This document shows, piece after piece, positions 633-61,860 of a DNA stretch of 64,000 nucleotides (positions within the stretch are counted from its first letter, which is position 1; every line of letters begins with the position of its first letter). This DNA is from Persicimonas caeni (lineage in GTDB: Bacteria > Myxococcota_A > Bradymonadia > Bradymonadales > Bradymonadaceae). The notes under the pieces are model-generated. The model made no database searches and was not told the DNA's origin. It saw only the letters and a program-made list of their open reading frames with translations. Where the stretch lies: contig NZ_CP041186.1 in assembly GCF_006517175.1 (NCBI RefSeq), positions 3,125,074 through 3,189,073 on the forward strand, read 5' to 3'. Both the position numbers and the translations under genes were made by a program.

Positions 633-1367
633 TCAGCCGCTCGACTTGCCCACTTTGTTGATCGCCTGCTGGTCCATCGTGCGATAGGTCTTCATGAGCT
701 GGTGCATCGTGTCGAAGTGCCGGTGCAGCGCGATCATCTCGGTCATCGACTCGACCGGGTTGACGTTGGCGTTCTCCACAAAGCCCTGCTCGAGCGAAGC
801 CCCCTGGGCGGGCATCAGGTTCTGTTGGGCGGTGGTATACAAACCATCACCCGAGGCCTGAAGAGCCTGAGGGTCTTGCACGTCGACCAGTCGAATCTCG
901 TCGAGCACTCCGATCTCATCGAAGATCAGCCCATCGGGCGCGATCTGGATGTTGGCGGCGTCACCGGGCACGTAAATGGGGAGTCCGTCGATATTGAGCA
1001 CGGGGTGTCCGGACTGGGTGACCAACCGCCTGTCGGCGTCGACGCGCAGGTTGCCGTTGCGGGTCAGCGAAGCCTGCTCGCCGCCTGCCCCGGCCTGCAC
1101 CTGCAAAAAGCCTCTCCCGGTGACGGCGACGTCGAGCGGATTACCCGTCTCCTGCAAAGCCCCCTGGCTCAAATCGAGCCGGCTGCCCTCCATGGCTACC
1201 TGGCGGTCGGCCACGTCCTCACCCGCCAACACCTCCGAGAACGACACGCGCTTGGCGCGATATCCGTCGGTGTCCGCATTGGCGAGGTTATGGCTGACCA
1301 CCTCGAGCTGGCGGTTGCGGGCGATAGCGCCCGACAAGGCTGTGTAGATTCCGTCGCTCATCGTCAC
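633..1367 (-). CDS. flgF: Flagellar basal-body rod protein FlgF
   Basis: 244-aa ORF with rod-protein N-terminal motif (SGAIARNRQLEVVSHNLANADTDGYRA) and C-terminal rod domain. Adjacent to flgG. Confidence 0.8.
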   Translation of the reverse strand: MTMSDGIYTALSGAIARNRQLEVVSHNLANADTDGYRAKRVSFSEVLAGEDVADRQVAMEGSRLDLSQGALQETGNPLDVAVTGRGFLQVQAGAGGEQASLTRNGNLRVDADRRLVTQSGHPVLNIDGLPIYVPGDAANIQIAPDGLIFDEIGVLDEIRLVDVQDPQALQASGDGLYTTAQQNLMPAQGASLEQGFVENANVNPVESMTEMIALHRHFDTMHQLMKTYRTMDQQAINKVGKSSG

Positions 1368-1401
1368 GTTCGGTCGAAAGCTTTAATCATTTTTTGGTAG
1401 A

Positions 1402-1417
1402 GCAATTGGCGTGCCAA
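1402..1417 (-). promoter_or_regulatory. Sigma-54 (-24/-12) promoter upstream of flgF: TGGCAC-GCCAA-TTGCT on minus strand
   Basis: Reverse complement of agcaattggcgtgccaa reads TTGGCACGCCAATTGCT, an exact TGGCAC-N5-TTGCW consensus about 35 nt upstream of the flgF start. Confidence 0.6.
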
Positions 1418-1991
1418 GCCACAATCGGCCCGAGAGGGGTGTAGGGCGGGGATTTCGGGGCCGAAAAAAAGTGGCGGGAAAATTATGCCGGGTGGGTGGG
1501 CAATTGGTTCGGGGGATGGGGGCCCGACCCGTGAACCTGCACGTGCACGTGAACGTCTCACCATCCCGCACACCTTTGTTGATGCGCTGCGTTGACGGTC
1601 GGGGCGCGGTCGTCCCCGGCCGCCGGGGTCCGTCTCGGGCCCCGCACGTGTTTGGGCAAGGCGTGTGCCTTGCAGGAAGACACGCAAGCTGGGGCGGGGA
1701 CGCCCCAGGGCGGGCGAGGACGCCGCGCGCCCCGACCCGGTTGTTCGCCTCCGCCATTTGTGTTGGATGGTGACACGTGAACGTTCACGGCCGTTCCCAC
1801 AGCAATGCGGTCAATCTTGCGATTGAGTCCCCCACTTCAGCGGCGGACCTTACAGTTCGGAGCCCCATTCCGCCCACCGGAAGCCACCCCGCACCTCACC
1901 CATACTTCTTCGGAAAAAAGTCCTCCAACGCCATCGAGGCGAGGTGTAGGCCCTGCAGAAGGCCCACGCCCGTCCGAGAAGCGCGAACGAC

Positions 1992-2618: not shown

Positions 2619-2780
2619 GCTGTCCTCCACGGTTGGGTTGTCATCGGTTGGTTTCTGAGCAGCGCAGACCTACACCCAGGCGCCGACCTCGGTCAATCCG
2701 CGCGGGGCCGTTGCGAAACGTACGTCCTGCAGAAGGCCCGCGCCTGCTATTGTAGCAATTATGATTGAAGGGCAGGGAGG

Positions 2781-3068
2781 GGGGCCTCTCCCTCGATCCC
2801 TCTCCTTCCCTTCGCTTCGCTACGGGTGGAGAGGGGGGCCTCTCCTCGGTCCTCTCCTTCCCTCCGCTTCGTTACGGGCGGAGAGGAAGATGTCGTTTAA
2901 TCGATCTCTGTACAGGGTGCGATGTTGCTCTACCGATCTCTGTACAAGGTGCGTACTGGCAACATCTTCCTCCCCTGCGCGAAGCAAAGCGTAGCGTAGG
3001 GGAGGACCGAGGAGGGGACTCCTCCTCCGCGAAGCGAAGCGAAGTGGAGGAGGACCGAGGAGGAGGAA
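2781..3068. repeat. MITE/REP-like palindromic element, family A copy 1 (~290 bp, nested inverted repeats around the ggaggaccgaggagg / cttcgcttcgctacggg cores)
   Basis: Left arms gggcctctccctcgatccctctccttcccttcgcttcgctacgggtggagagg pair with right arms cctcccctgcgcgaagcaaagcgtagcgtaggggaggaccgaggagg. The same element recurs at 3463, 9168, 38771 and 48056. Confidence 0.85.
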
Positions 3069-3149
3069 GCCTTTTTACCTACCCCCGACGCATCTCCAAC
3101 CCCTTTGGCTGTGCGGCTCGACAGGCAAGAAAGACCCCGGCGAGCCTGC

Positions 3150-3243
3150 GGGAGGCTCTTTCGAGGATGCTCGCAGGGTCGAAAATGCCTGCCGGAGGCT
3201 CTTTCGAGGATGCTCGCAGGGTCGAAAATGCCTGCCGGAGGGG
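3150..3243. repeat. Direct tandem duplication of a ~46-bp unit (ggaggctctttcgaggatgctcgcagggtcgaaaatgcctgccgga x2)
   Basis: Two near-identical consecutive copies are visible in the sequence between the two family-A elements. Confidence 0.8.
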
Positions 3244-3462
3244 GACGCGAGGGCGCGAGATGCTCGGAAGTGCCTCGGCGAGGGGGCGGCGAGCTCGCGG
3301 GCATCCACGGAAAAAGCCCCCGGCGGCTCGCCGGGGGCTTTGCTGTCCGCGCGCGCCACGTGCGGAGGTTATGCGGTCGGCTCGACGACGTCCTCGACGA
3401 CGGCCGCGGCGGCCATGACGGCGTTGTGGAGGTGTTTTGGGGGGGTAGCAGAGATTGGGGGA

Positions 3463-3752
3463 GGGGGGCCTCTCCCTCGATCCCTCTCTTTCCCTTCGCT
3501 TCGCTACGGGTGGAGAGGGGGCCTCTCCTCGGTCCTCTCCTTCCCTTCACTTCGTTACGGGCGGAGAGGAAGATGTCGTTTAATCGATCTCTGTACAGGG
3601 TGCGATGTTGCTCTACCGATCTCTGTACCAGGTGCGTACTGGCAACATCTTCCTCCCCTGCGCGAAGCAAAGCGGAGCGTAGGGGAGGACCGAGGAGGGG
3701 ACTCCTCCTCCGCGAAGCAAAGTGAAGTGGAGGAGGACCGAGGAGGAGGAAA
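3463..3752. repeat. MITE/REP-like palindromic element, family A copy 2
   Basis: Near-identical to 2781-3068, including the internal cgatctctgtacagggtgcg direct sub-repeats. Confidence 0.85.
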
Positions 3753-3760
3753 AAAAGCCG

Positions 3761-4501
3761 TTACCCAGCCATCACCCCCCGCAACTCCTTAATCGCCGCC
3801 GACTTCAACTGACTCACCCGCCCCGGCGTCAAATCGAGGATATCGCCGATCTCGGCCAAGGTGAGCTCCTTGTTGAAATACAGGTCCAACACCAACTGCT
3901 TGCGCTCACTCAACCCCTTCAAACAGTCGACGAGTTGCTCGCGGGTCTCCTTGTAGTTGACCAGGCGGAACGGGTCGGGGGTCGGGGCCGTGAGCGAGAA
4001 CGAGACGTCGGCTTCGTCGACGAACGAGTAGGGGGCGACCTTGCCGCGGAGCTCTTGGAGCTCCTGGAGGTCCATCTCCATCTCGGCGGCGAGTTCGGCG
4101 GGTTCGGGGGCGCGGCCCAGGTTGGACTCGAGCTTCTTTTCGGCCTTTTGCAGCTTGTTGGCCTTCTGGCGCAGCCGGCGTGGGAAGAAGTCGTGCTTGC
4201 GCAGGGAGTCGAGGATGGCGCCCTTGATGCGGAACTCGGCGAAGGTGCCAAAGGGCTTGCCCTCGGACGGGTCGAAGCGCTCGTGGGCGTCGAGCAGGCC
4301 CATGACGCCGACGCTGACCAGGTCTTCGAGCTCCAGGCCGCGGATATACGGCGGCAGCCGGCGTAAGATCCGCTGGGCGACCTTGCGCACCAGGCTACCG
4401 TACTCCTCGACGAGCGCGCGGTGCTGGCGCGCTTTCTCGAGCTCCTCGTTCGACGAGCTCGACTTCTGGTAGCTGCGAATGCCTCGTTTGGCTCTATACA
4501 T
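3761..4501 (-). CDS. fliA: Flagellar sigma factor FliA (sigma-28)
   Basis: 246-aa ORF with sigma-70 region 2 and region 4 signatures (LVRKVAQRI..., LTLAEIGDILDLTPGRVSQLKSAAIKELR). Located at the end of the flhA-flhF block. Confidence 0.8.
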   Translation of the reverse strand: MYRAKRGIRSYQKSSSSNEELEKARQHRALVEEYGSLVRKVAQRILRRLPPYIRGLELEDLVSVGVMGLLDAHERFDPSEGKPFGTFAEFRIKGAILDSLRKHDFFPRRLRQKANKLQKAEKKLESNLGRAPEPAELAAEMEMDLQELQELRGKVAPYSFVDEADVSFSLTAPTPDPFRLVNYKETREQLVDCLKGLSERKQLVLDLYFNKELTLAEIGDILDLTPGRVSQLKSAAIKELRGVMAG

Positions 4502-4512
4502 CGTTCAGTCCC

Positions 4513-5844
4513 TCAACGTCCTTGTACTTCCAACTTCTCGCCTGCCGACTCCGAGCCAGGTCGCTCACCGAGCATGATCCAATCGACCAACTCCTGGCTG
4601 TCCGGGCTGGCGATGTCTTCGGGGACCCGCGGGCCGTAACACACGTGCGACACGGGCAACTCGGTGGCGAAGCTCGTCGACAGGATCGAGCCGAGACGGC
4701 GCGATTCGTCGAGCTTGGTGAACACCAGCGAGGCGGGTTGCAGGCGGGCGTACGAGCGCACCGTCTCGACCATGTCGGCGGTGGTGCGCGTGGCGCTCAT
4801 GCAGATCTCGAAGCGCAGCGCGAAGTCGTCGCGGCATGCTCGGGCAAAATCTTCGTAGGCCAGCCCCTGCGAGGGGGCGGGGGCCCAGGGGCTTCGGCCC
4901 ATCGTGTCGACCAAGATGAGGTCGAAATCGCTCAGGCGGGTGAGCGCCAGGCGCAGCTCGGCGGGGGCGGAGACCGCGAAGATGGGCACGCCCACCAGGT
5001 CGGCGTAGGTCTCGAGCTGGTACAGCCCGCCAATCCGAAACGTGTCGGCGCAGATGATGCCCACGCGCTTGTTGCCCACCAGCTTGGCGTGGGCGGCGAC
5101 CTTGGCGATGGTGGTCGTCTTGCCCACGCCCGTGGGGCCGACGAAGACGGCCACTTCGGGCTTGTCGCTCTTCGTCTCCCACAGCGGCGGGGTCGTCTCG
5201 AGGCGGTCGATCATCTGCTGCTCGATGACGTCGTGGAGCACGCCGGGGCTGAGTTCCCACTCGACGTCGGCGTTGAACGCCCAGGCGATGAGCTCCTCGA
5301 TATGCCCCTCGAGCACGCCGCGGTAGCTCAGCGCCTCGTAGATCGCGGCGATGGTCTGGCCGAAATTGTCGGTGTGCTGGGGCTGGTATATGCGCTTGAT
5401 GCCCAGGCGAATCGACTCGAGCGCGTGGTACGGCAGCTCGGGCTTCTCGGGACGCGGCGCGGGGGCCGGCGCCGGGGTGGGCGCGGGCTGCTCGGCGCGC
5501 ATCTCCTCGCGAATGCGAAGGTGGCGCACCTCCGAGCTCAGCGAGCGAATCTGCTTGGCGAGGTCCTCGACCAGCGCGACCAGGGCCGCCTTCGACGGGT
5601 CCTCCTCGATGGGCGCCTGAGTGACCGGGGCCTGTGCCTGTGTCTGGGCGTGGGGCATCGGCGGGTGGGCGAACTCGCTGCTGGAGTCGCTGGGGGCCAC
5701 CGCGATCTCGAGGTTGCGCCCGTCTTCGGCGTGGGGCAGCCGCGAGGTGCTCACGATGACGGCGTCCTCGCCCAATTCACGTTTGATCTGACGCAAGCCC
5801 TCGCGGACGTCTTTGACGCGGTATTTTCGAAGCGGAAGTGTCAT
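4513..5844 (-). CDS. flhF: Flagellar biosynthesis SRP-like GTPase FlhF
   Basis: 443-aa ORF with G1 motif VAVFVGPTGVGKTTTIAKVAA and an SRP54/FtsY-type GTPase domain. Sits between flhA and fliA. Confidence 0.75.
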   Translation of the reverse strand: MTLPLRKYRVKDVREGLRQIKRELGEDAVIVSTSRLPHAEDGRNLEIAVAPSDSSSEFAHPPMPHAQTQAQAPVTQAPIEEDPSKAALVALVEDLAKQIRSLSSEVRHLRIREEMRAEQPAPTPAPAPAPRPEKPELPYHALESIRLGIKRIYQPQHTDNFGQTIAAIYEALSYRGVLEGHIEELIAWAFNADVEWELSPGVLHDVIEQQMIDRLETTPPLWETKSDKPEVAVFVGPTGVGKTTTIAKVAAHAKLVGNKRVGIICADTFRIGGLYQLETYADLVGVPIFAVSAPAELRLALTRLSDFDLILVDTMGRSPWAPAPSQGLAYEDFARACRDDFALRFEICMSATRTTADMVETVRSYARLQPASLVFTKLDESRRLGSILSTSFATELPVSHVCYGPRVPEDIASPDSQELVDWIMLGERPGSESAGEKLEVQGR

Positions 5845-5891
5845 AGCGTTCTACCTTGAGTTACGGGTCATGCGTCTTGTTGCATCGTGCG

Positions 5892-8021
5892 TCATTGAAT
5901 CTGGGCTTGCTGGGCGCCTTCGAGTTCGCCGGCGGGCAGGCTCAATTGAGCCACGCTGACCAGCTCGGCGCTCGGGACCACCTCGCGGTGGCAAAGCACC
6001 TGAATATCCGGGAAAAACTGGGCCAAAAACTGCTCCAGGGGGCCGCGCAAATCGGGCGGAGCCAGGATGACCGGCTCGGCGTCTTTGACGGCGAATTTGC
6101 CCAGCGCCTCCTCGATGGCGCCGAACAGCCCCTGCGCGGTGACCAGGTCGCAGGCGAGCACCGGCTCGCCCTGCTGCTTGACCAGGCACTGGCGAAGCTT
6201 GTCTTCGAGGGGGCGGTCGAGCAGCGCGGCGTGCAGCGTGCCGTTCTCGTCGGTCAGCTGGGCCGAAATCTGGCGAGCCAGCCGCGCGCGGACCTGGTCG
6301 GTCAGGGCGTTGACCGAGGTGTCGGGGTGCGCGCTTTCGGCCAACGCCTCGAGCACCGAGCGCAGGTCTCGGATGGAGACGCCCTCGCTGAGCAGGCGGC
6401 GCAAGACGTTGAGCAGCTTGCCGAAGCTGAGGCGCTCGCCGACGAGTTCCTCGACCAGGCGCGGGGCCTGCAGCTTGATCTCTTCGAGGCGATCCTCGAG
6501 GTCTTCCCAGCCAAACAGCTCGGCGGCGTGCTGACGGATGACCTCGGTGACGTGGGTGGTGATCACCGCCTCGTGGTCGACCACGGTGTAGCCGGCGGCC
6601 TCGGCGCGGTGGCGCTGGCTCTCGTCGACCCACACCGCGTCGAGCCCGAAGGTCGGGTCCTTGGTGGGCTCGCCGTCGATGCGCTGGGTGACGAAGCCGG
6701 GGTTGATGGCCATGAGCTTGTTCTGGCGAAGCTCGGCCGAGGCAATGGGCACGCCCTTGAGCAACAGGCGATAGGCGCCGGGCGCCATCTGCAGGTTGTC
6801 GCGGATATGAATCGACGGGACGATGATGCCCAGGTCGGAGGCGTATTGGCGGCGCACCTGCACGAGGCGCTTGAGCAAGGAGCCGCCGGAGGCCTCGTCG
6901 ACGACCTTGACCAGCCCGAAGCCGATCTCGAGGGCGAGGGTCTCGACGCGCAGCAGCTCGTCGAGCTCGGGCTCGGCCTTCTCGTCCTTCTTTTCGTCGG
7001 CGTCGTCCAGCTCGACGGTCTCGTCGGCCGCCTGCGAGACGCGCCAGCCGAGCCAGCCAATGGCGCCGGCCATCGTCGCAAAGATCATGAAGGGCATGCC
7101 GGGGACCAGCCCCAGCAAAAAGAGGGTGACCGAGGCGCCGAACAACACGCGCTGGTCGCCCAGGAGCTGACCGGTGAGCTCGTCGCCCAGCTCGGCCGCG
7201 CTGGCCGCGCGGGTGACGACCACGCCGGTGGCCGTCGAGATGAGCAACGCCGGAATCTGGCTGACCAGGCCGTCGCCCACCGTGAGCACGGTGTAGGTCT
7301 GCGCGGCGTCACCGAAGGCCATGCCGCCCTGGAAGACGGCGATGAGCAGGCCGCCCATGATGTTGATGGCGGTGATGATCAGGCCGGCGATGGCGTCGCC
7401 GCGCACGAACTTGGAGGCGCCGTCCATCGCCCCGTAGAAGTCGGACTCGCGCTCGACGTCGCTGCGCTTTTGGCGCGCGTCCTCTTCGGTCAACGTGCCC
7501 GCGGCGAGCTCGGCGTCGATGGCCATCTGCTTGCCGGGCAGCGCGTCGAGGGTGAAGCGCGCGGCGACCTCGGCGATGCGCCCGGCGCCCTTGGTGATGA
7601 CCATGAAGTTGATGAGCACCAAGATCAGGAAGACGATGATGCCGATGATGCTGTTGCCGCCGACCACGAAGTGGCCGAAGGTCTCGATGATGCGCCCGGC
7701 GTTGGCCTTGCCCTCGGCCGCGCCCAGCAAGATGAGCCGGGTCGAGGCGACGTTCAGGCCCAGGCGAAAGAGCGTGGAGATGAGCAGCAGCGCCGGCAGC
7801 ACTGAGAACTCGAGCGGCCGGTTGACGAAGACGGCGGTGAGCAGGATGAGCACCGCCACGGTGATGTTGACCGACAACAAAAGGTCGAGCAGCACCGGCG
7901 GCAGCGGCAGCACCATCAGCGCGATGACGCTGAGCAGCACGAACATCAGCGGAGCGCTCTTGGCGCCCTGGAGCCTCTCGGTCAGGCTCATCTGCGTGCT
8001 GGATTTGGTGGCCGAACTCAT
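5892..8021 (-). CDS. flhA: Flagellar type III export apparatus protein FlhA
   Basis: 709-aa ORF with N-terminal polytopic membrane domain and large cytoplasmic domain. Typical FlhA size and motifs (FHFVVGGNSIIGIIVFLILVLINF). Confidence 0.85.
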   Translation of the reverse strand: MSSATKSSTQMSLTERLQGAKSAPLMFVLLSVIALMVLPLPPVLLDLLLSVNITVAVLILLTAVFVNRPLEFSVLPALLLISTLFRLGLNVASTRLILLGAAEGKANAGRIIETFGHFVVGGNSIIGIIVFLILVLINFMVITKGAGRIAEVAARFTLDALPGKQMAIDAELAAGTLTEEDARQKRSDVERESDFYGAMDGASKFVRGDAIAGLIITAINIMGGLLIAVFQGGMAFGDAAQTYTVLTVGDGLVSQIPALLISTATGVVVTRAASAAELGDELTGQLLGDQRVLFGASVTLFLLGLVPGMPFMIFATMAGAIGWLGWRVSQAADETVELDDADEKKDEKAEPELDELLRVETLALEIGFGLVKVVDEASGGSLLKRLVQVRRQYASDLGIIVPSIHIRDNLQMAPGAYRLLLKGVPIASAELRQNKLMAINPGFVTQRIDGEPTKDPTFGLDAVWVDESQRHRAEAAGYTVVDHEAVITTHVTEVIRQHAAELFGWEDLEDRLEEIKLQAPRLVEELVGERLSFGKLLNVLRRLLSEGVSIRDLRSVLEALAESAHPDTSVNALTDQVRARLARQISAQLTDENGTLHAALLDRPLEDKLRQCLVKQQGEPVLACDLVTAQGLFGAIEEALGKFAVKDAEPVILAPPDLRGPLEQFLAQFFPDIQVLCHREVVPSAELVSVAQLSLPAGELEGAQQAQIQ

Positions 8022-8070
8022 CGTTTGCTTATCTCGTGTACTTCGTTTCTCGTTTCGTCACCCTTGCGGG

Positions 8071-9132
8071 TTAGCGCTTCTTTTTCTTCCAGACGTAGGC
8101 CAGAACTTCGGCCACCGCGCGGTAGAAGTTTTCGGGGATTGGCTCCCCGACTTCTACGTGTCTATGCAGTGTGCGTGCCAACGGAGGTTGGGTGACCATC
8201 GGCACGTCGTTTTCGGTGGCGATTTCGCGGATACGCAGCGCCTTGTGGTCGAGTCCTTTGGCGACCACCATGGGCACGCCGAAGTCGGGATCGTAGCGCA
8301 GCGCCACGGAGACGTGGGTGGGGTTGTTGATGATGACATCGGCCTCGGGCACCGCCTCGATGAGCCGGTTGGCGTCGAGCAGGCCGCGGTGCTGCTGGCG
8401 GCGCCGGCTCTTGATGAGCGGGTCGCCCTCGCTTTGCTTGTGCTCTTGCTTGGCCTCCTGCTTGGTCATCTTCATCTTTTCGTTCATCTGATGGCGCTGC
8501 CAAAAGAAGTCGGCGATGCCCAGAAGGACCATGGTCAAAGCGGCGGCAAAGAGCGGGTAGACGGAAATTTTCTCGAAGTAGCGGGCAAATTCTGCCGGGT
8601 GCATGTGCAGCAGTTGCCCGGGGGCCGGCGCGAAGGCGGTCAGCGCCAGGGCGGCCACCAGGCCGATGACCACGACCTTCGCCAGCGTCTTGATGAGCTG
8701 GGCGACGGTGTCCTTGGACAGAAACTTCTTTTTGAAGCCCTTGATGGGGTCGAGCTTCTCGAGCTTGGGCTCGAGCGGTTTGCCGCTCAAAAGCGGGCCG
8801 GTCTGCATCATGTGGGCGGCGATGGCGGCCACGCACATCACCCCGAAGACGGGCACCAACGGGGCGACGACCGCCTCGACGAGGCCCGAGAAGACGACCT
8901 CGGGGCTGCTGATGAAGTTCTCCGACTCGTCGAGCCGCGCCCACACGCCGCTCAGGGCCGCCGAGATGGGACCGCTGGCCAGCGTCGAGCCGACCCACAG
9001 CGCCGCCGCGCTGGCTACGAGCATGACGCCGGCGGCGAGCTCCTGGCTCTTGGCGACTTCACCGCGTTCGCGGAATTGTCGTTTGCGCTGGGGTGTGGCT
9101 TGTTCTGTTTTTTCTTGGCCGGACTCGCTCAT
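8071..9132 (-). CDS. flhB: Flagellar export apparatus protein FlhB
   Basis: 353-aa ORF with four TM helices and the NPTH autocleavage motif (IINNPTHVSVALRYDPD). Confidence 0.85.
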   Translation of the reverse strand: MSESGQEKTEQATPQRKRQFRERGEVAKSQELAAGVMLVASAAALWVGSTLASGPISAALSGVWARLDESENFISSPEVVFSGLVEAVVAPLVPVFGVMCVAAIAAHMMQTGPLLSGKPLEPKLEKLDPIKGFKKKFLSKDTVAQLIKTLAKVVVIGLVAALALTAFAPAPGQLLHMHPAEFARYFEKISVYPLFAAALTMVLLGIADFFWQRHQMNEKMKMTKQEAKQEHKQSEGDPLIKSRRRQQHRGLLDANRLIEAVPEADVIINNPTHVSVALRYDPDFGVPMVVAKGLDHKALRIREIATENDVPMVTQPPLARTLHRHVEVGEPIPENFYRAVAEVLAYVWKKKKR

Positions 9133-9167
9133 GGTGAGGAGTGGTGCAAGGGGTGGGCCAAGCCGGT

Positions 9168-9386
9168 GTCGTCCTCTCCCTCGATCCCTCTCCTTCCCTT
9201 CGCTTCGCTACGGGTGGAGAGGGGGGCCTCTCCTCGGTCCTCTCCTTCCCTCCGCTTCGCTACGGGTGGAGAGGAAGACGTTGCTCTATCGATCTCTGTA
9301 CGGGGTGCGTTGAAGCAACATCTTCCTCCCCTGCGCGAAGCGAAGCGTAGCGCAGGGGAGGACCGAGGAGGACCGAGGAGGAGGAA
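9168..9386. repeat. MITE/REP-like palindromic element, family A copy 3 (shorter), inserted between flhB and fliR inside the flagellar export operon
   Basis: Same arms as copies 1 and 2 (ctccctcgatccctctccttcccttcgcttcgctacgggtggagagg ... ggaggaccgaggaggaccgaggagg). It fills the whole flhB-fliR intergenic gap. Confidence 0.85.
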
Positions 9387-9391
9387 AGTAC

Positions 9392-10177
9392 TTAGTTTGC
9401 CACGAGCATGCGCATCTGATTGGCCACGTCCAAGAGCTGGTCACTCATCAACGCGGCGAACGACGGCATGGTGAAGTAGAGCATGATCATGCCGGCGGGG
9501 ATGGTCAGCGCGAAGCCGAACGCAAAGAGGTTCATCTGCGGGGCGACCTTGGCCATGACGGCCAAGACGACGTAGACCATCAGGCCGGCGGCCATGACTG
9601 GGGCGGCCAGGCGCAGGCTGACCGAGAAGAACTGCGAGCCCAGGTGGGCCATGTCGAGACGCGAGACCGTGGTCATGGCCACGCTGCCCGGCGGGAGCAT
9701 GCGGAAGGTGTCGAAGACCGCGCTGATGATGTGTAGGTGGGCGTCGACGGCGAAGAAGACCAGGAGGCCGATGACCTTGAGGATGCGGCTGATGACGGTG
9801 GTGCTCGCGCCGGTCGACGGGTCGACGAAGCTCGCGAAGCCCAGGCCCATCGAGTAGCTGGCCATCTGGCCCATGCCGGTGGCGAAGGCCATGATCACGC
9901 GCACCATAAGCCCCATCGCCAGGCCGAGGATGAACTCGGGGGCGAGCACGGCCAGCCAGGCGGCGATGCCTGCTTCCGGGGGGAGGTGGGGGAAGCCGAG
10001 CGCCCAGCACATCACCAGGGTCAGGTGCAGGGCCAAGAGCGCGCGCACCCTCGGCGGCACCGCCGAGTTGGTGCCCAGCGGCGTGCCCGACAAGACGCCC
10101 AGCAGGCGCATCATGACCGCCGCGCCGCCCAGTATGTAGCCGTCGGCGGCAAATAGGAGCGCGCTCAGCTCGTTCAC
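9392..10177 (-). CDS. fliR: Flagellar export apparatus protein FliR
   Basis: Polytopic membrane protein with FliR motifs. The longer ORF-track version (to 10234) overlaps fliQ, and a GTG start at 10177 gives a GTGA overlap with the fliQ stop (translational coupling). Confidence 0.75.
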   Translation of the reverse strand: MNELSALLFAADGYILGGAAVMMRLLGVLSGTPLGTNSAVPPRVRALLALHLTLVMCWALGFPHLPPEAGIAAWLAVLAPEFILGLAMGLMVRVIMAFATGMGQMASYSMGLGFASFVDPSTGASTTVISRILKVIGLLVFFAVDAHLHIISAVFDTFRMLPPGSVAMTTVSRLDMAHLGSQFFSVSLRLAAPVMAAGLMVYVVLAVMAKVAPQMNLFAFGFALTIPAGMIMLYFTMPSFAALMSDQLLDVANQMRMLVAN

Positions 10178-16698: not shown

Positions 16699-16714
16699 TG
16701 GCACACCCCTTGCT
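16699..16714 (+). promoter_or_regulatory. Sigma-54 (-24/-12) promoter: TGGCAC-ACCCC-TTGCT
   Basis: Exact TGGCAC-N5-TTGCW match about 20-80 nt upstream of the first plus-strand gene of the signalling operon. It lies in the divergent intergenic region next to motA. Confidence 0.6.
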
Positions 16715-38749: not shown

Positions 38750-38770
38750 CCCAATCGGTCAATTGTTCGA

Positions 38771-38980
38771 CATCTTCCTCCCCCGCGTAGCGAGGGGAGG
38801 ACCGAGGAGGGGCGTCCCTTTCCATGTAGCGAAGCGAAATGGAGAGGGATTCAGGGAGAGGCCCCTACTACAATCGCCCGCAAGCAATCCGCCCCCCGCT
38901 ACGGGCAACGCACGTCGGCTACGCCTCCGTGCTCGCCCGCAGCTAAAAGTTCGTATCACCCACAAGGGGTTCGAGGACGA
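38771..38980. repeat. Composite repeat: half of a family-A element (catcttcctcccc...ggaggaccgaggagg) followed by a family-B element (ccgctacgggcaacg...ctcgcccgcagctaaaagttcgtatcacccacaaggggttcgagg)
   Basis: Sequence identity to 48056-48265 and to the B copies at 39285 and 39455. Confidence 0.8.
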
Positions 38981-39096: not shown

Positions 39097-39395
39097 TGCC
39101 GCGTACCGAAATCAAAGAGCAAGCCCACAAACTTGTCGATGAACTACCAGACGACGCGACTTGGGAGGACCTCGAGTACAAGATCTATGTGCGTCGCAAG
39201 ATAGAGCGTGGCCTCGAGAGTATCGAGAAGGGAGAGACCGTGAGTACCGATGAGGTACGCGCACGCTTCGGACTGGATAAGAGAAGCTACGGGCAACGCA
39301 CGTCGGCTACGCCTCCGTGCTCGCCCGCAGCTAAAAGTTCCGTATCACCCACAAGGGGTTCGAGGTTGGAGTCCTGGCAGGAGAATGCATTTTGA
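39097..39395 (+). CDS. Small antitoxin-like/addiction-module-like protein (about 60-aa native core; C-terminal about 36 aa read through a repeat element)
   Basis: AGGAGG 7 nt upstream of ATG. The core MPRTEIKEQAHKLVDELPDDATWEDLEYKIYVRRKIERGLESIEKGETVSTDEVRARFGLDK resembles small antitoxin-type proteins. The reading frame then continues into the family-B repeat copy. Confidence 0.4.
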
Positions 39396-39542
39396 GCCGT
39401 CCGGAGCCTGTTGCTCAATTGTCTCGAACGGGCCGTTTGGGCAGGACCGACGATCGTGGAACCCCTTGTGGGTGCAAAAGAATTTGTAGCTGCGGGCGAG
39501 CGAGGCGTCCCGAAGGGCGCCGAGAGTTGCCCGTAGCGGGGT
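39285..39542. repeat. Family-B repeat pair in inverted orientation (39285-39366 direct, 39455-39542 inverted) forming a long hairpin with about 90-nt spacer
   Basis: cccacaaggggttcgagg ... cctcgaaccccttgtggg arms and the agctacgggcaacg.../...cgttgcccgtagc outer arms. Confidence 0.8.
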
Positions 39543-39560
39543 TTGTCCTTGCCTTCCACC

Positions 39561-48010: not shown

Positions 48011-48055
48011 TCACACAAACGAGCCCCCATCTTGCCCGGAGACACCGCGCCAAGG

Positions 48056-48265
48056 CAACATCTTCCTCCCCTGCGCGAAGCACAGCGGAGCGTAGGGGAG
48101 GACCGAGGAGGGGACTCCTCCTCCGCGAAGCAACGCGAAGTGGAGGAGGACCGAGGAGGAGGCCGGGCTCCATAATCGAACCCCGCTACGGGCAACGCTC
48201 GACTCCCTCCGGTCGCCTCGCTCGCCCGCAGCTACAAGTTCCGTTTCACCCACAAGGGGTTCGAG
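48056..48265. repeat. Composite repeat: family-A half-element + family-B element (second copy of the 38771-38980 arrangement)
   Basis: caacatcttcctcccctgcgcgaagca...ggaggaccgaggagg followed by ccgctacgggcaacgctcg...cccgcagctacaagttccgtttcacccacaaggggttcgagg. Confidence 0.8.
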
Positions 48266-48504
48266 GCTGTCGGCCCCGCAAGAAATCACGTCCCGCGCCG
48301 GTCGAAGCCAGACGCACAAGCGCCCAGGACCGCCGCACCTACAGGGCCGGAGGTTGTGGTGGATGAGCCGGTCGGGCCGGTCGAGCCGGTTGGGGTGTAG
48401 GACTCCCAGCCAGGTTGACCGGCCCCCGGGGCGGCCTACGCCGCCCGGCCCCCCGCCGCTCATTGAGCACACATAAATCCGTGTACTGGCCAAGAGGCCA
48501 ACTC

Positions 48505-48969: not shown

Positions 48970-49968
48970 ATGGCCGCCATGAAATACGCCATCACACTCG
49001 TCATACTCGCCGCCGGTCTCACCCTCGCCACAGGTTGCGGCTCCGATGCCGACTCCACGCAGCAGAACACGGGCGACGCCGGCCAATCCGATACAACTCA
49101 GACCGATACAAACCAGCCTGACACGAATCAGCAGGACGCAGGCGGCGACGCGGCGCTCGCGCCGCCGTGGGATGCGAGCGCGCCGTTGGGCGGCGACCGT
49201 CCGGCGCGGGTGATCTTGCCCAACGCCTACGACCGCACGCAGAGCTGGCCGCTGGTCGTGTTGCTGCACGGGTACACGGCCACCGGGCCGCTGCAGGATG
49301 CCTATTTCGGGTTGAGCCGGCGTGGCGACGAGCGTGGGTTTATCACCGTGCTGCCCAACGGGACGCAGGACGGGGCGGGCAACCGGTTTTGGAACGCGAC
49401 CGACGCGTGCTGCAACTTCGGGGGGAGCAGCGTCGACGACGTGCAGTACCTGAGTGACCTGCTCGCCGAGGCCAAAGAGCGCCTGGCGGTCGACGCCGAC
49501 CGGGTCTACTTCATGGGGCACTCCAACGGCGGGTTCATGAGCTACCGGATGGCCTGCGAGCTCGGCTCCGAGATCGCGGCCATCGCCAGCCTGGCGGGCA
49601 GCGCGTTCGACGACGCGCAGGATTGCGCCGAGAACGGGCAGGTGGGCGTGCTGCAGATCCACGGCGACGCCGACGAGACCGTGCTGTACGACGGCGGCCA
49701 ATTCGCCGGCAACGCCTACCCCGGCGCGCGCGAGGTCGCCGAGCGCTGGGCGGCCAGAAACGGCTGCGACGCCCAGGCGCAGACCGGCGAGGCGGCCGAT
49801 CTCGACAAGGATGTCGACGGCGCCGAGAGCGATATCGAGCAGTGGGGTGGGTGCGAGGCCGACCGGCGCGTGGAGCTGTGGAGCATCCGCGGCGGCGGGC
49901 ATATCCCGAGCCTGAGCGACGATTTTACCGACCGGGTGCTCGACTTTTTGTTCGCGCACAGCCGATGA
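48970..49968 (+). CDS. Secreted alpha/beta-hydrolase, PHB-depolymerase-type esterase lipoprotein
   Basis: Signal plus lipobox (ITLVILAAGLTLATGCGSD), T/Q/D-rich linker, nucleophile elbow GHSNGG and the esterase core VVLLHGY...FMGHSNGGFMSY. Confidence 0.75.
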   Translation: MAAMKYAITLVILAAGLTLATGCGSDADSTQQNTGDAGQSDTTQTDTNQPDTNQQDAGGDAALAPPWDASAPLGGDRPARVILPNAYDRTQSWPLVVLLHGYTATGPLQDAYFGLSRRGDERGFITVLPNGTQDGAGNRFWNATDACCNFGGSSVDDVQYLSDLLAEAKERLAVDADRVYFMGHSNGGFMSYRMACELGSEIAAIASLAGSAFDDAQDCAENGQVGVLQIHGDADETVLYDGGQFAGNAYPGAREVAERWAARNGCDAQAQTGEAADLDKDVDGAESDIEQWGGCEADRRVELWSIRGGGHIPSLSDDFTDRVLDFLFAHSR

Positions 49969-49977
49969 GGAGCGAAA

Positions 49978-50170
49978 AAGCTAACGAGCGAAGCAGGGAA
50001 TGAGCGAAGAAGGGAATGAGCGAAGAAGGGAATGAGCGAAGAAGGGAATGAGCGAAGAAGTGAATGAGCGAAGAAGGGAATGAGCGAAAAAGAGAATGAG
50101 CAGAACAGGTAATGAGCGAAAAAAGGAATGAGCGAAAAAGGGAATGAGCAGAACAGGTAACGAGCAAAAA
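49978..50170. repeat. Tandem array of about 12 copies of a 16-bp unit (gaatgagcgaagaagg) with 3' degeneration
   Basis: Directly visible perfect copies, then diverged copies (gaatgagcgaaaaaga, gaatgagcagaacagg). Confidence 0.9.
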
Positions 50171-50303
50171 AGGCGCGCAAATTCTGCCTACGCGGCGCGC
50201 TGACGAAAATATTGCCTACCTCGAACGGCGCTGGAGACCTCTCTAGCGCCGTTTTTCGTGGCACACGCCTTGCATCGCCTTTCTACGGTTTAAATCCACC
50301 CCG

Positions 50304-51151: not shown

Positions 51152-53254
51152 ATGCGCTACCGTGCTTGTTGTGCCGCCCTCGGTTTATTCGCCCTACTCA
51201 CTGTGTCCGCCGGATGCTCCGAGGATTCGGGCGGCGGGACGGACGCGCCGCTCGACGGCGGGTCCGGTGCGGACGCCGCGGCTGACGTGGGCGACGTCGG
51301 CGACGACGCAGCCGACACGTCCGATCCGGGCGACACCGGCGTCGACGCGACCGATGCGGCGGACGCCGACAGTTCGTCCGACTCCGGGGATGCGGCCGAC
51401 GCCTCCGACACCGCGGAGGACGTCGAAGAGGACACCACGCCCGCCGCCGAGTGCGGCAACGGCGTGCGCGAAGAGGGCGAGGCGTGCGACGGCGACGATA
51501 TCCCCGAGGCGTGCACGGGGTGGAGCGAGGCGGTGTCGTGCACGGCCAGCTGCGAGTTGACCCCGTGTCGGGGCAGGCTCACGATCACGCCGAGCACCCA
51601 GGGCCAGGTCGACCTGGCCAAGGTCACCGCGGACGGCCAGACGCTCTTCTTCTACACCTCGGCGGGCGGCGACCTCGTCGACTGGCACTCGCTCGATCTG
51701 GCGACCGGCAACGTCACCCCGGTGGCCTCGGGGCTCGACGAAGACTTCGCCGCCGTCTACCCGAGCTCCACCGGTGAGCACGCGGTGCTCTACGAGTTCT
51801 TGTCGCCCTTCAAGGTGTGGACGAAGTCGACCGGCGCGCTGGTCGACTTGACGGTCGATCCCGTCGAAGACCAGCTCTACGTGTACGACCACGCCCTGGC
51901 CTATCTCGAGGAGCGCGGCAACAGCCGCCGCGAGCACGCCCTGCATGTGTTCGACTACGCCAGCGGCCAGACCACCGAGGTGCTCGACAACGTCTACGAA
52001 CCGTACGGAAGGCTGCGGGTCAGCCCCGACGGGCGCTACATGGCGGTGTGGACGCAGGCGGACTTCGACGCCCCATTCGAGATGCACGTCGTCGACCTGA
52101 CCACCGCCAGCGTGCTGGCGAGCGACTCGAGCCGCGACACGGTGCGCGGGCGCTTCTCGCCGACCGGCGAGGCGTTCGTCTTCGAGAAGAACTCGGGCCT
52201 GGCGGTGTGGTTTGCGGCGACGAACACCATCGAGGAGGCCCCCAACGGCGGCGGCACCGTCCTGGAGGCGCGGTTCTCGCCCGACGGCTCGCTTCTGGCC
52301 TACGCCGACCCGGTCAACAGCACCAACAAGGACTACGAGAGCTGGTTGTGGGACTTGCAGGCCAACACCGACACCGCGTTGAGCGATCGAGCGGGCACGC
52401 GCTTCGACTTCTCGCCCGACGGCACCAAGCTGGCCCATTTGAGCACCCGCAGCCCGAGCTTGCGAGACAGCGCCGAGCTGCGCATTCGCGACCTGACCAC
52501 GCAGACCGATATCGTCGTGGCTGACGGCGTGGCCCACGAGCACGTCACCTGGAGCCCGTCGAGCGACGCGGTGGCCTTCGCCGACCCGACCTCCAACTAC
52601 ATCTACGCCGAAGAAGACTTGCGCGTCGCCGAGCTGGCCAACGGGGCGGCCACTGTCCACGACGTGACCCGCGGCGGCTCGGCCCGCGCGGTGTGGCACC
52701 CCGACTCCGAAGGCCTGTTCTGGATTACCGCCCAGAGCCAGGTGCAGAGCAAGCGCTTTGGCTACTGGCAGCGCGCCTCGCAGCAGACCACCGAGTTGCT
52801 CGACGAGTTGCGCCAGAGCTTTTCGGTGATCGTCAACGCCACCTGGGATCACGTCCTGGGCGTCTTCCCGGGCACCGGGCTCAACCCGGGCGCGCCCATC
52901 ACCGCCTTCGCCCCCGACACCCAGACGACCACCGAGCTGTCGGCCTCCGACCGCTTCCGCGCCGAGTGGTTCGACGGAGGTTCGCCCCACTCGGCCGCCT
53001 GGACCGGCCAGGGTCAGTGGTTGGGGCCGACCTCGCGGTTTGTGAGCTGGCGAGAGCGCGACGAGGAGTTCGACGGCACCGGCCCGCTGGACGTGTTCGA
53101 CCTGGCCACCGGCACCACCAGCAGCGTGCCGCTGCTGCTGAGCGATGAGGCCCGGCTCAACGACCACATGCACGGGTCGGACGCCGTGGCGGTCGTGGAG
53201 TTATACCGCCCGCAGTATACGAACACTTATACGTTCTGGATCTATCGGCCGTAG
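51152..53254 (+). CDS. Lipoprotein with acidic linker, Cys-rich module and TolB/WD40-like beta-propeller
   Basis: Signal plus lipobox (LGLFALLTVSAGCSED), a D/A/S/T-rich linker, an ECGNGVREEGEACDGDD Cys-rich module, then repeated (R)FSPDG...(L)A(Y/F) motifs typical of TolB-like propellers. Confidence 0.7.
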   Translation: MRYRACCAALGLFALLTVSAGCSEDSGGGTDAPLDGGSGADAAADVGDVGDDAADTSDPGDTGVDATDAADADSSSDSGDAADASDTAEDVEEDTTPAAECGNGVREEGEACDGDDIPEACTGWSEAVSCTASCELTPCRGRLTITPSTQGQVDLAKVTADGQTLFFYTSAGGDLVDWHSLDLATGNVTPVASGLDEDFAAVYPSSTGEHAVLYEFLSPFKVWTKSTGALVDLTVDPVEDQLYVYDHALAYLEERGNSRREHALHVFDYASGQTTEVLDNVYEPYGRLRVSPDGRYMAVWTQADFDAPFEMHVVDLTTASVLASDSSRDTVRGRFSPTGEAFVFEKNSGLAVWFAATNTIEEAPNGGGTVLEARFSPDGSLLAYADPVNSTNKDYESWLWDLQANTDTALSDRAGTRFDFSPDGTKLAHLSTRSPSLRDSAELRIRDLTTQTDIVVADGVAHEHVTWSPSSDAVAFADPTSNYIYAEEDLRVAELANGAATVHDVTRGGSARAVWHPDSEGLFWITAQSQVQSKRFGYWQRASQQTTELLDELRQSFSVIVNATWDHVLGVFPGTGLNPGAPITAFAPDTQTTTELSASDRFRAEWFDGGSPHSAAWTGQGQWLGPTSRFVSWRERDEEFDGTGPLDVFDLATGTTSSVPLLLSDEARLNDHMHGSDAVAVVELYRPQYTNTYTFWIYRP

Positions 53255-53545
53255 AGCTTGGAGGCAGCGCATCTTGCGCTGGGTGCATTGGCGCGCGCTC
53301 CTGCTACCAGCGCTGGAAGCGCTGCCTCCAAACGGCGCCGTAGAGCTTGGAGGCAGCGCATCTTGCGCTGGGTGCATTGGCGCGCGCTCCTGCTACCAGC
53401 GCTGGAAGCGCTGCCTCCGAACGGCGCTGGAAGCGCTGCCTCCAAACAGCGCCGTAGAGCTTGGAGGCAGCGCATTTTGCGCTGGTTGCATTGGCGCGCG
53501 CTCCTGCTACCAGCGCTGGAAGCGCTGCCTCCAAACGGCGGCGAC
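53247..53545. repeat. Tandem array of 3 copies of a about 92-114-bp palindromic unit (family D; gtagagcttggaggcagcgcatcttgcgctgggtgcattggcgcgcgctcctgctaccagcgctggaagcgctgcctccaaacggcgcc)
   Basis: Three consecutive near-identical copies. Each unit is itself an inverted repeat (ggaggcagcgc ... gcgctgcctcc). A related single unit lies at 55690-55775. Confidence 0.9.
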
Positions 53546-55572: not shown

Positions 55573-55689
55573 GTTGTTTCTCGGGGGGTTGGGTGAGCTT
55601 GGCGGGGAGGACTATAAGGGAGGCGTGGGATTTTGGCGACCATTATCGTTTTTTTGGGGCGGGGACGCCCCTGAGGCTGTCACTAAAGG

Positions 55690-55775
55690 TCGCCATAGTT
55701 TGGAGGCAGCGCTTCTAGCGCTGGTTGCATGAGCGTACGGGCTTGCAACCAGGGCAAGATGCCCGGCCTCCAAAG
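55690..55775. repeat. Family-D single unit (gtttggaggcagcgcttctagcgctggttgcatgagcgtacgggcttgcaaccagggcaagatgcccggcctccaaa)
   Basis: Shares the ggaggcagcgc core with the 53247 array and the gggcaagatgccc motif with family C. Confidence 0.7.
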
Positions 55776-56009
55776 GCTTTCGCGACAGCCTCGTCCCCGA
55801 CCGCCGGGGTCCGTCTCGGGCCCCGCACGTGTTCGAGCAGGGCGTAGCTTGATGGGGCCCCCATCCACCTCGCGCTGTACGACGCGCGAGGCACCTTCCC
55901 CCGGGGGAAGGGATGTCCTTGCTTGTTTGCAAAGCGTTGGGTATTCGCTGGATTGTCGTCGTGGTGTTACAATCGCGCGGCGGGTGGCGGAGTTCGACGC
56001 GGGCAGAGG

Positions 56010-61594: not shown

Positions 61595-61860
61595 GAGACT
61601 ATCAGCCGCCCAAGTCGCCACAAGCGAAAAAAACTACACCCCCAACAACCGACCACGCCACAACGCGCTAAGGCATCCCTTCCCCTGGGGGAAGGTGCCC
61701 GTAGCGAAGCGAAGGGCGGATGGGGGGCGACGGAAAGCTGTGACTACAAACAAAACGCGAGGGCAAGATGCCCCCGCACCGAACACATCACGAGGGCAAG
61801 ATGCCCACGCACCGAATCCACAGCGCCGCGAATTTACACGATCCCCCGTCTGTGTCATCA
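61595..61860. repeat. Family-C repeat, right copy (inverted relative to 59655-59905)
   Basis: Its reverse complement aligns with the left copy through gcgttttgtttgtagtcacagctttccgtcgccccccatccgcccttcgcttcgctacgggcaccttcccc...gggaagggatgcc...ttgtggcgtggtcggttgttggggg. Confidence 0.85.

Follow-up and report, generated by a model that had tools for sequence, protein, structure and literature searches.

A composite repeat family with triplex-motif architecture at the flagellar genes of Persicimonas caeni

Introduction

What kind of element are the long palindromic sequences that lie among the flagellar genes of Persicimonas caeni, and does the copy lodged between fliR and flhB serve the operon in which it sits? 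The DNA in question is a 64,000-nt stretch (hereafter the window) of strain YN101 of this predatory bacterium (Bradymonadales; CP042468.1:3125074-3189073). Its repeats, here called family A, had been labeled in an initial annotation as miniature inverted-repeat transposable elements (MITEs), and the copy between fliR and flhB was expected to be transcribed as a long hairpin within a coupled flagellar mRNA. The evidence presented below indicates that family A is probably a repeat of the P. caeni lineage assembled from modules of the BoxC/PIT/TM type, and that it represents selfish or neutral structured DNA that has been tolerated and not recruited. The data can be explained without a regulatory role in the flagellar operon, although such a role may exist.

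A mirror-symmetric module shared by all copies

Each family A element contains two to four modules that read, from 5' to 3', as a pyrimidine arm (Y), a first loop of 9-24 nt, a purine arm (R1), a second loop of 3 nt (CCG, TCG, or TTC), and another purine arm (R2) that is the exact reverse of R1 and not its complement. Seventeen such modules are present in the 82.6 kb covered, which comprises the window and 9-10 kb on either side of it (L118 and L119), whereas second-order Markov simulations of the same sequence yield 0.06 on average and never more than 1. The mirror between R1 and R2 is exact over 8-10 nt in every module, and the three domains invariably follow one another as Y, R, and mirror-R on one strand, whereas the Y arm carries zero or one mismatch in 16 modules and two in the remaining one. 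Membership in class II of the intrastrand triplex motifs is defined by stems of at least 8 nt with at most one mismatch, in which the third arm mirrors the purine arm and Y is complementary; the domain order and the mirrored third arm of this class are both found in family A. With a single exception, all exact purine mirror repeats in the window belong to this family. Nested inverted repeats had been reported for these elements and are indeed present, but that picture was incomplete in that it missed the mirror repeats.

The three arms vary in concert: where R1 has a substitution or an extra G, R2 shows the mirrored change and the Y arm the complementary one. Arm sets that exhibit this three-way covariation include GGGGAGGA/AGGAGGGG/CCTCCCC and GGAGAGGA/AGGAGAGG/CCTCTCC, as well as the further types GGAGAGGGA/AGGGAGAGG/CCCTCTCC and GGAGGAGGA/AGGAGGAGG/CCTCCTCC. 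Complete modules are exemplified by CCTCCCCT..AGGGGAGGA-CCG-AGGAGGGGA, TCCTCTCC..GGAGAGGA-CCG-AGGAGAGG, CCCTCTCC..GGAGAGGGA-TCG-AGGGAGAGG, and TCCTCCTCC..GGAGGAGGA-CCG-AGGAGGAGG, and one module written as an oligonucleotide would be TCCTCCCCT...AGGGGAGGACCGAGGAGGGGA. An alternative-pairing switch and a Shine-Dalgarno mimic were also considered as explanations for the module, and were set aside because the conserved feature is exact mirror symmetry and not direct repetition.

When modules are folded as DNA, Y is predicted to pair with R1 in five of six cases, the U2-type module pairing differently, and R2 is left essentially unpaired by ViennaRNA, which does not model third strands. Loop 1 folds as a small inner stem that extends the hairpin and is closed by a GNA triloop, often in the form of a GCGAAGC mini-hairpin. 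Hairpin and third arm together span 37-53 nt, except in a fused module of 60 nt in copy 3. Modules are in turn assembled into larger units: a half element consists of ACATCTT followed by two modules, and in the full form (220-295 bp) two halves face each other head to head across a core of 60-90 nt that carries AAGATGTTGC...GCAACATCTT.

Copies of family A and their relationships

The claim that this is a genuine multicopy family of noncoding palindromic repeats is well supported by match counts far above shuffle expectation. The core CTTCGCTTCGCTACGGGTGGAGAGG, allowing up to three mismatches, has six matches, all within the three long copies (0.00 expected from shuffles), and GGAGGACCGAGGAGG, allowing one mismatch, has nine matches across five loci (0.02 expected). 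The three long elements and two truncated copies listed previously for the window were all found in place (copies 1 to 3, p4, and p5; Table 1), and a sixth copy (p6) lies beyond its edge. Copies 1 and 2 share 97.3% identity over 294 nt. Copy 3 is 81-94% identical to them and has two internal deletions relative to copy 1, one of which removes one 32-nt core repeat and the other 38 nt between two AGGACCGAGGAGG repeats. Half element p5 corresponds to the right half of copies 1 and 2 with 96-97% identity, and p4 is more diverged. The former sits 45-153 nt upstream of a minus-strand gene starting at 48010, the latter begins about 20 nt past the stop codon of a gene for an 1845-aa DUF3686/AAA ATPase, and each is followed by a repeat of another family (family B, described below).

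A tandem duplication was entertained as the origin of copies 1 and 2, whose starts are 683-684 nt apart, and was rejected because the 382-nt segment between them is not repeated. This intervening DNA contains a 43-nt tandem repeat in 2.3-2.5 copies (3144-3252), and at 3311-3345 a G+C-rich hairpin with a minus-strand T run looks by eye like an intrinsic terminator downstream of fliA, although an automated terminator scan did not list it.

Four of the six known loci fall within the 12-kb flagellar cluster. Neither family A nor any module was found in 47.4 kb sampled elsewhere in the genome (L244 and L245, which bring the sampled total to 130 kb), nor in one contig of a relative (L246). The distribution of the family is therefore patchy; at the density seen around the window, about 3.4 loci would be expected in the sampled 47 kb.

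Comparison with relatives and strains

A comparison of the same locus in related organisms, which had been set beforehand as a check, reveals that the element is missing there and thus is not conserved intergenic sequence. In two relatives (L114 and L116, whose FlhB proteins are 57% and 54% identical to that of P. caeni), fliR and flhB overlap by 4 nt, the fliA-flgF gap is 196-832 nt with no glutathione S-transferase (GST) gene, and no modules occur in 17 kb from each. The closest relative (L113; FlhB 74% identity) has a different fliR-flhB spacer of 150 nt and likewise lacks modules. Because relatives have either overlapping genes or a different spacer, and no modules, copies 1-3 are derived in the P. 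caeni lineage. The view that copy 3 on the one hand, and copies 1 and 2 plus the GST gene on the other, are additions that have widened these gaps therefore stands.

Change is also evident among close strains. Two environmental contigs (L121 and L122) encode a FlgF protein 100% identical to that of P. caeni. In L121, p6 carries an exact deletion of 30 nt, approximately one module length, between GGAGAGG repeats; the L122 contig ends inside p6. The spacer between the GST gene and flgF is 630 nt in the window (1362-1991), 456 nt in L121 (673-1128), and 237 nt in L122 (491-727), differences that arise because another repeat, about 85 nt long (gggcgtgggccttctgcagggcc...), has been gained or lost. 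Exact look-ups of FliR and FlhB for environmental contigs that span the fliR-flhB junction returned these proteins only from two isolate assemblies.

Copy p6 is also exceptional in its location: it is embedded in the reading frame of flgA, within the annotated 5' end, and precedes the part that encodes the hydrophobic core of the signal peptide. In L121 the sole in-frame start codon of flgA is upstream of p6, the 30-nt indel keeps the frame, and the FlgA proteins of relatives lack these approximately 30 residues. Thus, p6 is translated as part of flgA. Open reading frames (ORFs) through the elements had been dismissed as artifacts. This holds for the others, which are not annotated and have no homologs (protein searches with copy 1 translated in six frames, aimed at ORFs mistakenly called over other copies, gave no matches), but not for p6. 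Rickettsia palindromic elements similarly insert in frame in genes, although they are unrelated to family A in sequence and design, and most family A copies are intergenic.

The fliR-flhB junction

Genes were assigned from Pfam and public annotation, with which the earlier calls for the flagellar locus agree. The minus-strand order is fliO-fliP-fliQ-fliR / flhB-flhA-flhF-fliA / GST / flgF-flgG-flgA-flgH. From motB to fliA, the junctions between genes measure -4 to +49 nt with the sole exception of the 259-nt fliR-flhB gap, and a further 2.4 kb separates fliA from flgF. Copy 3 had been said to occupy the entire flhB-fliR spacer; it fills most of it, but leaves about 7 nt on the side of the fliR stop codon and about 40 nt ahead of the flhB ATG.

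These last 40 nt include a sigma-54-type -24/-12 promoter-like site, TGGCCCACCCCTTGCA, 8-13 nt from the end of copy 3 and nearly the same as a site before a fliJ-like gene. The pattern TGGC-N7-TTGCW has four matches in the window, compared to 0.85 expected, and three of these are placed correctly before flagellar genes. The flagellar cluster looks to be sigma-54-driven, with several internal promoters. In L113, the fliR-flhB spacer holds GGCACGAACCTTGCG (GGCACG-N4-TTGCG), and no sigma-54-type site was found at the 3' end of fliR in L114 and L116, in which the two genes overlap. Inside the 3' end of flhB (about 8165-8180, minus strand), upstream of flhA, there is also a TGGCACG-N4-CTGCAT sequence that is conserved in L113, L114, and L116.

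Because the site falls between copy 3 and the flhB ATG, two transcription units probably meet at the fliR-flhB junction, which would then not be coupled. Furthermore, flhB has no Shine-Dalgarno-like sequence (the DNA just upstream of it contains CTCCTC) and its ATG follows the -12 element by only about 12-14 nt, and therefore the flhB transcript might be nearly leaderless. As RNA, copy 3 is predicted to form a very stable fold (-134.9 kcal/mol, z = -6.9), and neither a U-tract terminator nor a sigma-70 promoter was found in it. The proposal of a long hairpin in a coupled polycistronic mRNA is accordingly sustained with respect to the fold, but coupling is doubtful with a sigma-54-type promoter candidate before flhB. 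If the boundary reading holds, copy 3 would be a passenger in a permissive spacer, and at most a 3' hairpin on the upstream mRNA.

Kinship with BoxC/PIT/TM motifs

The design of the family A module is not new. BoxC/PIT/TM motifs have been known since the 1990s and are abundant in many bacteria, and to our knowledge neither a function nor a copy mechanism has been accepted for them. This class II purine-motif intrastrand triplex motif was first named BoxC in E. coli, then PIT (Hoyne et al. 2000), and then TM or TMECO (Holder et al. 2015; PMC4666352). TMECO follows the pattern CCCTCNCCC-N3-6-GGGNGAGGG-N3-GGGNGAGGG, with TTA or CCG as second loops, is intergenic, occurs also as inverted pairs, and forms a triplex in vitro as single-stranded DNA (PMC4666352). 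RNA does not form purine-motif triplexes, and loci that bear TMECO are more variable between strains and exhibit small deletions (PMC4666352), a pattern matched by the module-length deletion in L121 and the 38-nt deletion in copy 3.

Family A shares with these motifs the order of Y arm, loop, R arm, 3-nt loop, and mirror R arm, G/C-rich stems of 8-10 nt with GGAGAGGG-like words, conserved stems alongside variable loops, a multicopy and mostly intergenic distribution, inverted pairs, small deletions between close strains, and absence from phage contigs (an 18-mer yielded no matches in a scan of viral contigs). Its CCG second loop is that of TMECO type B. In other respects it is distinct. Loop 1, which is only 3-6 nt in TMECO, spans 9-24 nt in family A and contains an extended stem with a GNA triloop or GCGAAGC; a half element is made of two joined modules and a conserved ACATCTT head; and the 220-295-bp composites are arranged head to head around a core, unlike the E. 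coli pairs, which are tail to tail and coreless. One copy lies in a coding region, and the stems (GGGGAGGA, GGAGAGGA, GGAGAGGGA, and GGAGGAGGA) differ from the TMECO consensus, with which family A has the design and the CCG loop in common but nothing more. On account of the long loop 1, the different stem words, and the assembly into halves and full forms, family A is a composite long-loop variant of a design already known, and not a member of TMECO itself.

Related modules are widespread. A genome-collection scan with AGGGGAGGACCGAGGAGG, which covers organisms other than the source and also returns chance coding matches, revealed the module cCTCCTCCCcT-loop-AGGGGAGGACCGAGGAGGgg in Xanthomonadales, Alcanivorax bins, Ignavibacteria, Patescibacteria, Bacteroidales, and others. 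Many other stem variants at the loci retrieved obey the same relation among the three arms, in which T may also stand opposite A. Of 81 seed-free hairpins, 20 are directly followed by a mirror third strand (7/8 or better), compared to 1 at a control position and 6 for a direct-repeat control. Soil metagenomes are rich in a second module type, GGAGAGGACCGAGGAGAGG, and the pyrimidine arm lies upstream in 91 of 124 matches there. The family-specific 26-mer CAACATCTTCCTCCCCTGCGCGAAGC had no matches in a metagenome scan, and a literature search by sequence string returned nothing relevant.

Two other observations emerged from these scans. In Ignavibacteria proteins, a AGGGGAGGACCGAGGAGG triplex module occurs in frame (SSPLAKGRTEEG) in Por_Secre_tail domains, which are type IX secretion system C-terminal sorting domains, and there the stems are kept and the loops differ among paralogs and species. 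In Stenotrophomonas bins, triplex modules recur every 190-240 nt or so in tandem arrays (L003 5325-6059, L077 85-788, L064, and L092).

Origin and role of family A

If family A is structured DNA of the BoxC/PIT/TM kind, a plausible course of events can be outlined. In a single-stranded module the Y and R arms would form a hairpin, and the mirror arm could turn back to lie as a third strand against the purine strand, creating G*G-C and A*A-T triads. The family settles at gene boundaries, once in frame in a signal-peptide region, and changes by slippage between its own internal repeats. Copy 3 would have inserted into the short spacer that separates the fliR stop codon from the sigma-54-type promoter candidate of flhB, where, if active at all, it might provide an RNA hairpin at the 3' end of the upstream transcript and not an attenuator within a coupled operon.

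Several considerations weigh against this account. Triplex formation by family A modules is proposed from the arrangement of their arms, and footprinting with dimethyl sulfate detected no TMECO triplex in vivo (PMC4666352). Published search definitions limit loops to 1-6 nt in ITxF and 0-10 nt in Hoyne et al., limits that loop 1 of family A (9-24 nt) exceeds, although the 3-nt loop 2 lies within them, and thus formal searches would miss these modules. The sigma-54-type site before flhB is recognized by consensus match only, and its promoter activity is accordingly presumptive. Moreover, the long-range inverted repeat and the location of copies 2 and 3, 5-8 nt past stop codons, would also fit an RNA role of the kind ascribed to repetitive extragenic palindromic (REP) sequences.

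The label of a classical MITE, a nonautonomous transposon with terminal inverted repeats that is moved in trans by a DDE transposase, is understandable. The elements are 220-295 bp in size and intergenic, copies 1 and 2 are 97% identical, and the ends are imperfectly inverted, CCTCTCCCTCGATCCCTCTCC matching the reverse complement of the right end at about 16 of 21 positions. Correia/NEMIS, ERIC, and RUP elements similarly combine this size with an overall long hairpin, multiple copies, and insertion in operons. Unlike those MITEs, family A has no fixed unit length, and its apparent terminal inverted repeats are themselves the outer triplex modules and probably not transposase-binding repeats. 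No target-site duplication is visible in the flanks of the six loci, the copies differ by whole modules, and solo halves have different module combinations. No transposase was seen in the 130 kb sampled, except for a Y1-type gene with palindromes of its own that are unrelated. The label is therefore not supported, and an origin of this type seems quite unlikely.

A REP/BIME- or REPIN-like cluster mobilized by a REP-associated tyrosine transposase (RAYT) would accommodate the modular mosaic, the hairpin units arranged as inverted doublets, and the elements located just past stop codons, all of which recall REP sequences at gene 3' ends and in operons, with their possible mRNA hairpins. The REP unit is an imperfect palindrome of only 20-40 nt, found alone or in inverted doublets, and family A modules, at 37-53 nt with the third arm, are also seen in inverted arrangements. 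Most module types contain GTAG in loop 1, and the genome encodes a Y1_Tnp protein with a weak RAYT match (55 bits, compared to a cut-off of 80). However, GTAG in REPs is located at the foot of the palindrome and not in the loop, and REPs have no mirror third arm. The ATGGTGTCWGACACC palindromes that flank the one RAYT-like gene in the DNA sampled are unrelated to family A and absent from the window, and the 47 kb sampled elsewhere, including the surroundings of this gene, lacks family A altogether. The gene may belong to a separate REP/RAYT system, and RAYT-driven spread of family A is hard to credit.

REPs are known to stabilize upstream mRNA in E. coli operons such as malE-malF, and copies 3 and 2 might likewise be functional cis-acting RNA elements that set the ratio of fliL-fliR to flhB-fliA expression through attenuation, protection from 3' exonucleases, or RNase processing. 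The strength of the copy 3 fold, the absence of a Shine-Dalgarno sequence before flhB, and the immediate proximity of copies 2 and 3 to the ends of fliA and fliR are all consistent with this possibility. Nevertheless, the contexts of the family A copies are unrelated, their orientation relative to transcription differs, and all relatives examined lack the family. No U-tract terminator was found, and a search of Rfam 15 gave no match at gathering score and only noise at E-value thresholds, in the form of eukaryotic miRNA-hairpin models below threshold. The sigma-54-type promoter candidate downstream of copy 3 could drive flhB independently, and PIT elements have neither promoter nor terminator activity in E. 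coli (Hoyne and Maher 2002, via PMC4666352). A cis-acting RNA function is, on balance, unlikely.

It is even conceivable that the purine arms act not through triplexes but as G-quadruplexes or as decoys for ribosome binding, given that they are G-rich with repeated GGAGG and that CTCCTC lies just upstream of flhB. This is very improbable: the G runs are mostly of 2 nt, modules lie on both strands relative to transcription, and neither mechanism needs the mirror symmetry and matching pyrimidine arm that have been kept through substitutions and an insertion. The reading of family A as tolerated structured DNA could also be extended. The Y-R-mirrorR modules might constitute a pan-bacterial, structure-selected DNA element with its own single-stranded-DNA copy mechanism, whose composite P. 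caeni form is actively changing. In addition, copy 3, with approximately 220 bp of triplex- and cruciform-prone DNA at about -28 to -250 of a sigma-54 promoter, where enhancer-binding proteins loop DNA, might have come to serve as a structural spacer or bend, driving a near-leaderless flhB transcript once fliR-flhB coupling had been lost. This combination is speculative and decidedly improbable.

Implications

Because it combines three-way covariation, patchy local enrichment, module-length indels between strains, and an in-frame copy in a signal peptide, family A offers a convenient natural system for testing the importance of the third arm. There are also practical lessons for annotation, since elements of this kind split or extend ORF calls (as in flgA), break metagenome assemblies (as in L122), and can wrongly pass for regulatory hairpins. 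With respect to flagellar biology, fliR and flhB of the P. caeni lineage are probably separated by a boundary that carries a promoter.

Feature coordinates and other repeats

Table 1. Coordinates of family A copies, neighboring genes, and promoter-like sites (window positions unless another contig is named)
Feature	Position	Strand	Remarks
p6, half element (sixth copy)	L119 11583-11672 (window -327..-218)		flgG/flgA junction, in 5' end of flgA
flgF	633-1361	minus	
Sigma-54-type site before flgF, TGGCACGCCAATTGCT	1401-1416	minus	
GST gene	1992-2618	minus	between fliA and flgF; not at this position in L114 and L116
Copy 1, full form	2776-3069	+	about 155 nt upstream of GST start codon
Copy 1, triplex-type modules	2786-2837, 2840-2888	minus	
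Copy 1, core	2889-2968		32-nt direct repeat and inverted repeat AAGATGTTGC...GCAACATCTT
Copy 1, modules	2969-3019, 3021-3067	+	
Copy 2, full form	3460-3752	+	ends about 8 nt downstream of fliA stop codon
Copy 2, modules	3471-3521, 3523-3571	minus	
Copy 2, modules	3652-3702, 3704-3750	+	
fliA	3761-4501	minus	stop codon 3761-3763
flhB	8071-9132	minus	353 aa; ATG at 9132; downstream of copy 3
Sigma-54-type -24/-12 promoter-like site before flhB, TGGCCCACCCCTTGCA	9145-9160	minus	consensus match; 3' end 12 nt from flhB ATG
Copy 3	about 9168-9386	+	between fliR stop codon and flhB promoter-like site
Copy 3, modules	9173-9225, 9228-9276	minus	
Copy 3, fused module	9325-9384	+	
fliR	9392-10177	minus	261 aa as annotated; stop codon 9392-9394; upstream of copy 3
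Sigma-54-type site before divergent fliJ-like gene, TGGCACACCCCTTGCT	16699-16714	+	
p4, half element	38770-38862	+	ACATCTT and modules 38777-38813, 38816-38862; second loops CCG, TTC
p5, half element	48055-48163	+	GCAACATCTT, then modules 48065-48115, 48117-48163
Sigma-54-type site	50259-50274	+	
Y1_Tnp gene, RAYT-like	L244 13975-14952 (CP042468.1 about 548000-548977)		325 aa; flanked by inverted ATGGTGTCWGACACC palindromes
Ignavibacteria in-frame module loci	L007 4486-5043, L058 4929-7295		also L011, L042, L059, L062, L090, L094, L104

Family A is one of several repeats in this DNA. Family B (ccgctacgggcaacg...cacccacaaggggttcgagg) is found at 38895-38977, 39287-39369, 39442-39544, and 48180-48280, and its occurrence directly after p4 and p5 suggests that the two families form larger mosaic units. 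A third palindromic family (AGCTTGGAGGCAGCGC...GCTGCCTCCAAA) is both tandem and dispersed (53249-53545, 55652-55798, 1611-1665, and L119, at window -6976..-6831), and a tandem array at 49938-50193 comprises about 16 copies of the 16-nt unit GAGCGAAGAAGGGAAT. Further inverted or dispersed repeat pairs with 83-93% identity include 59729-59874/61640-61783, 48701-48864/50307-50473, and 61759-61817 with copies in L118. Overall, the intergenic regions of the P. caeni genome are unusually rich in repeats.

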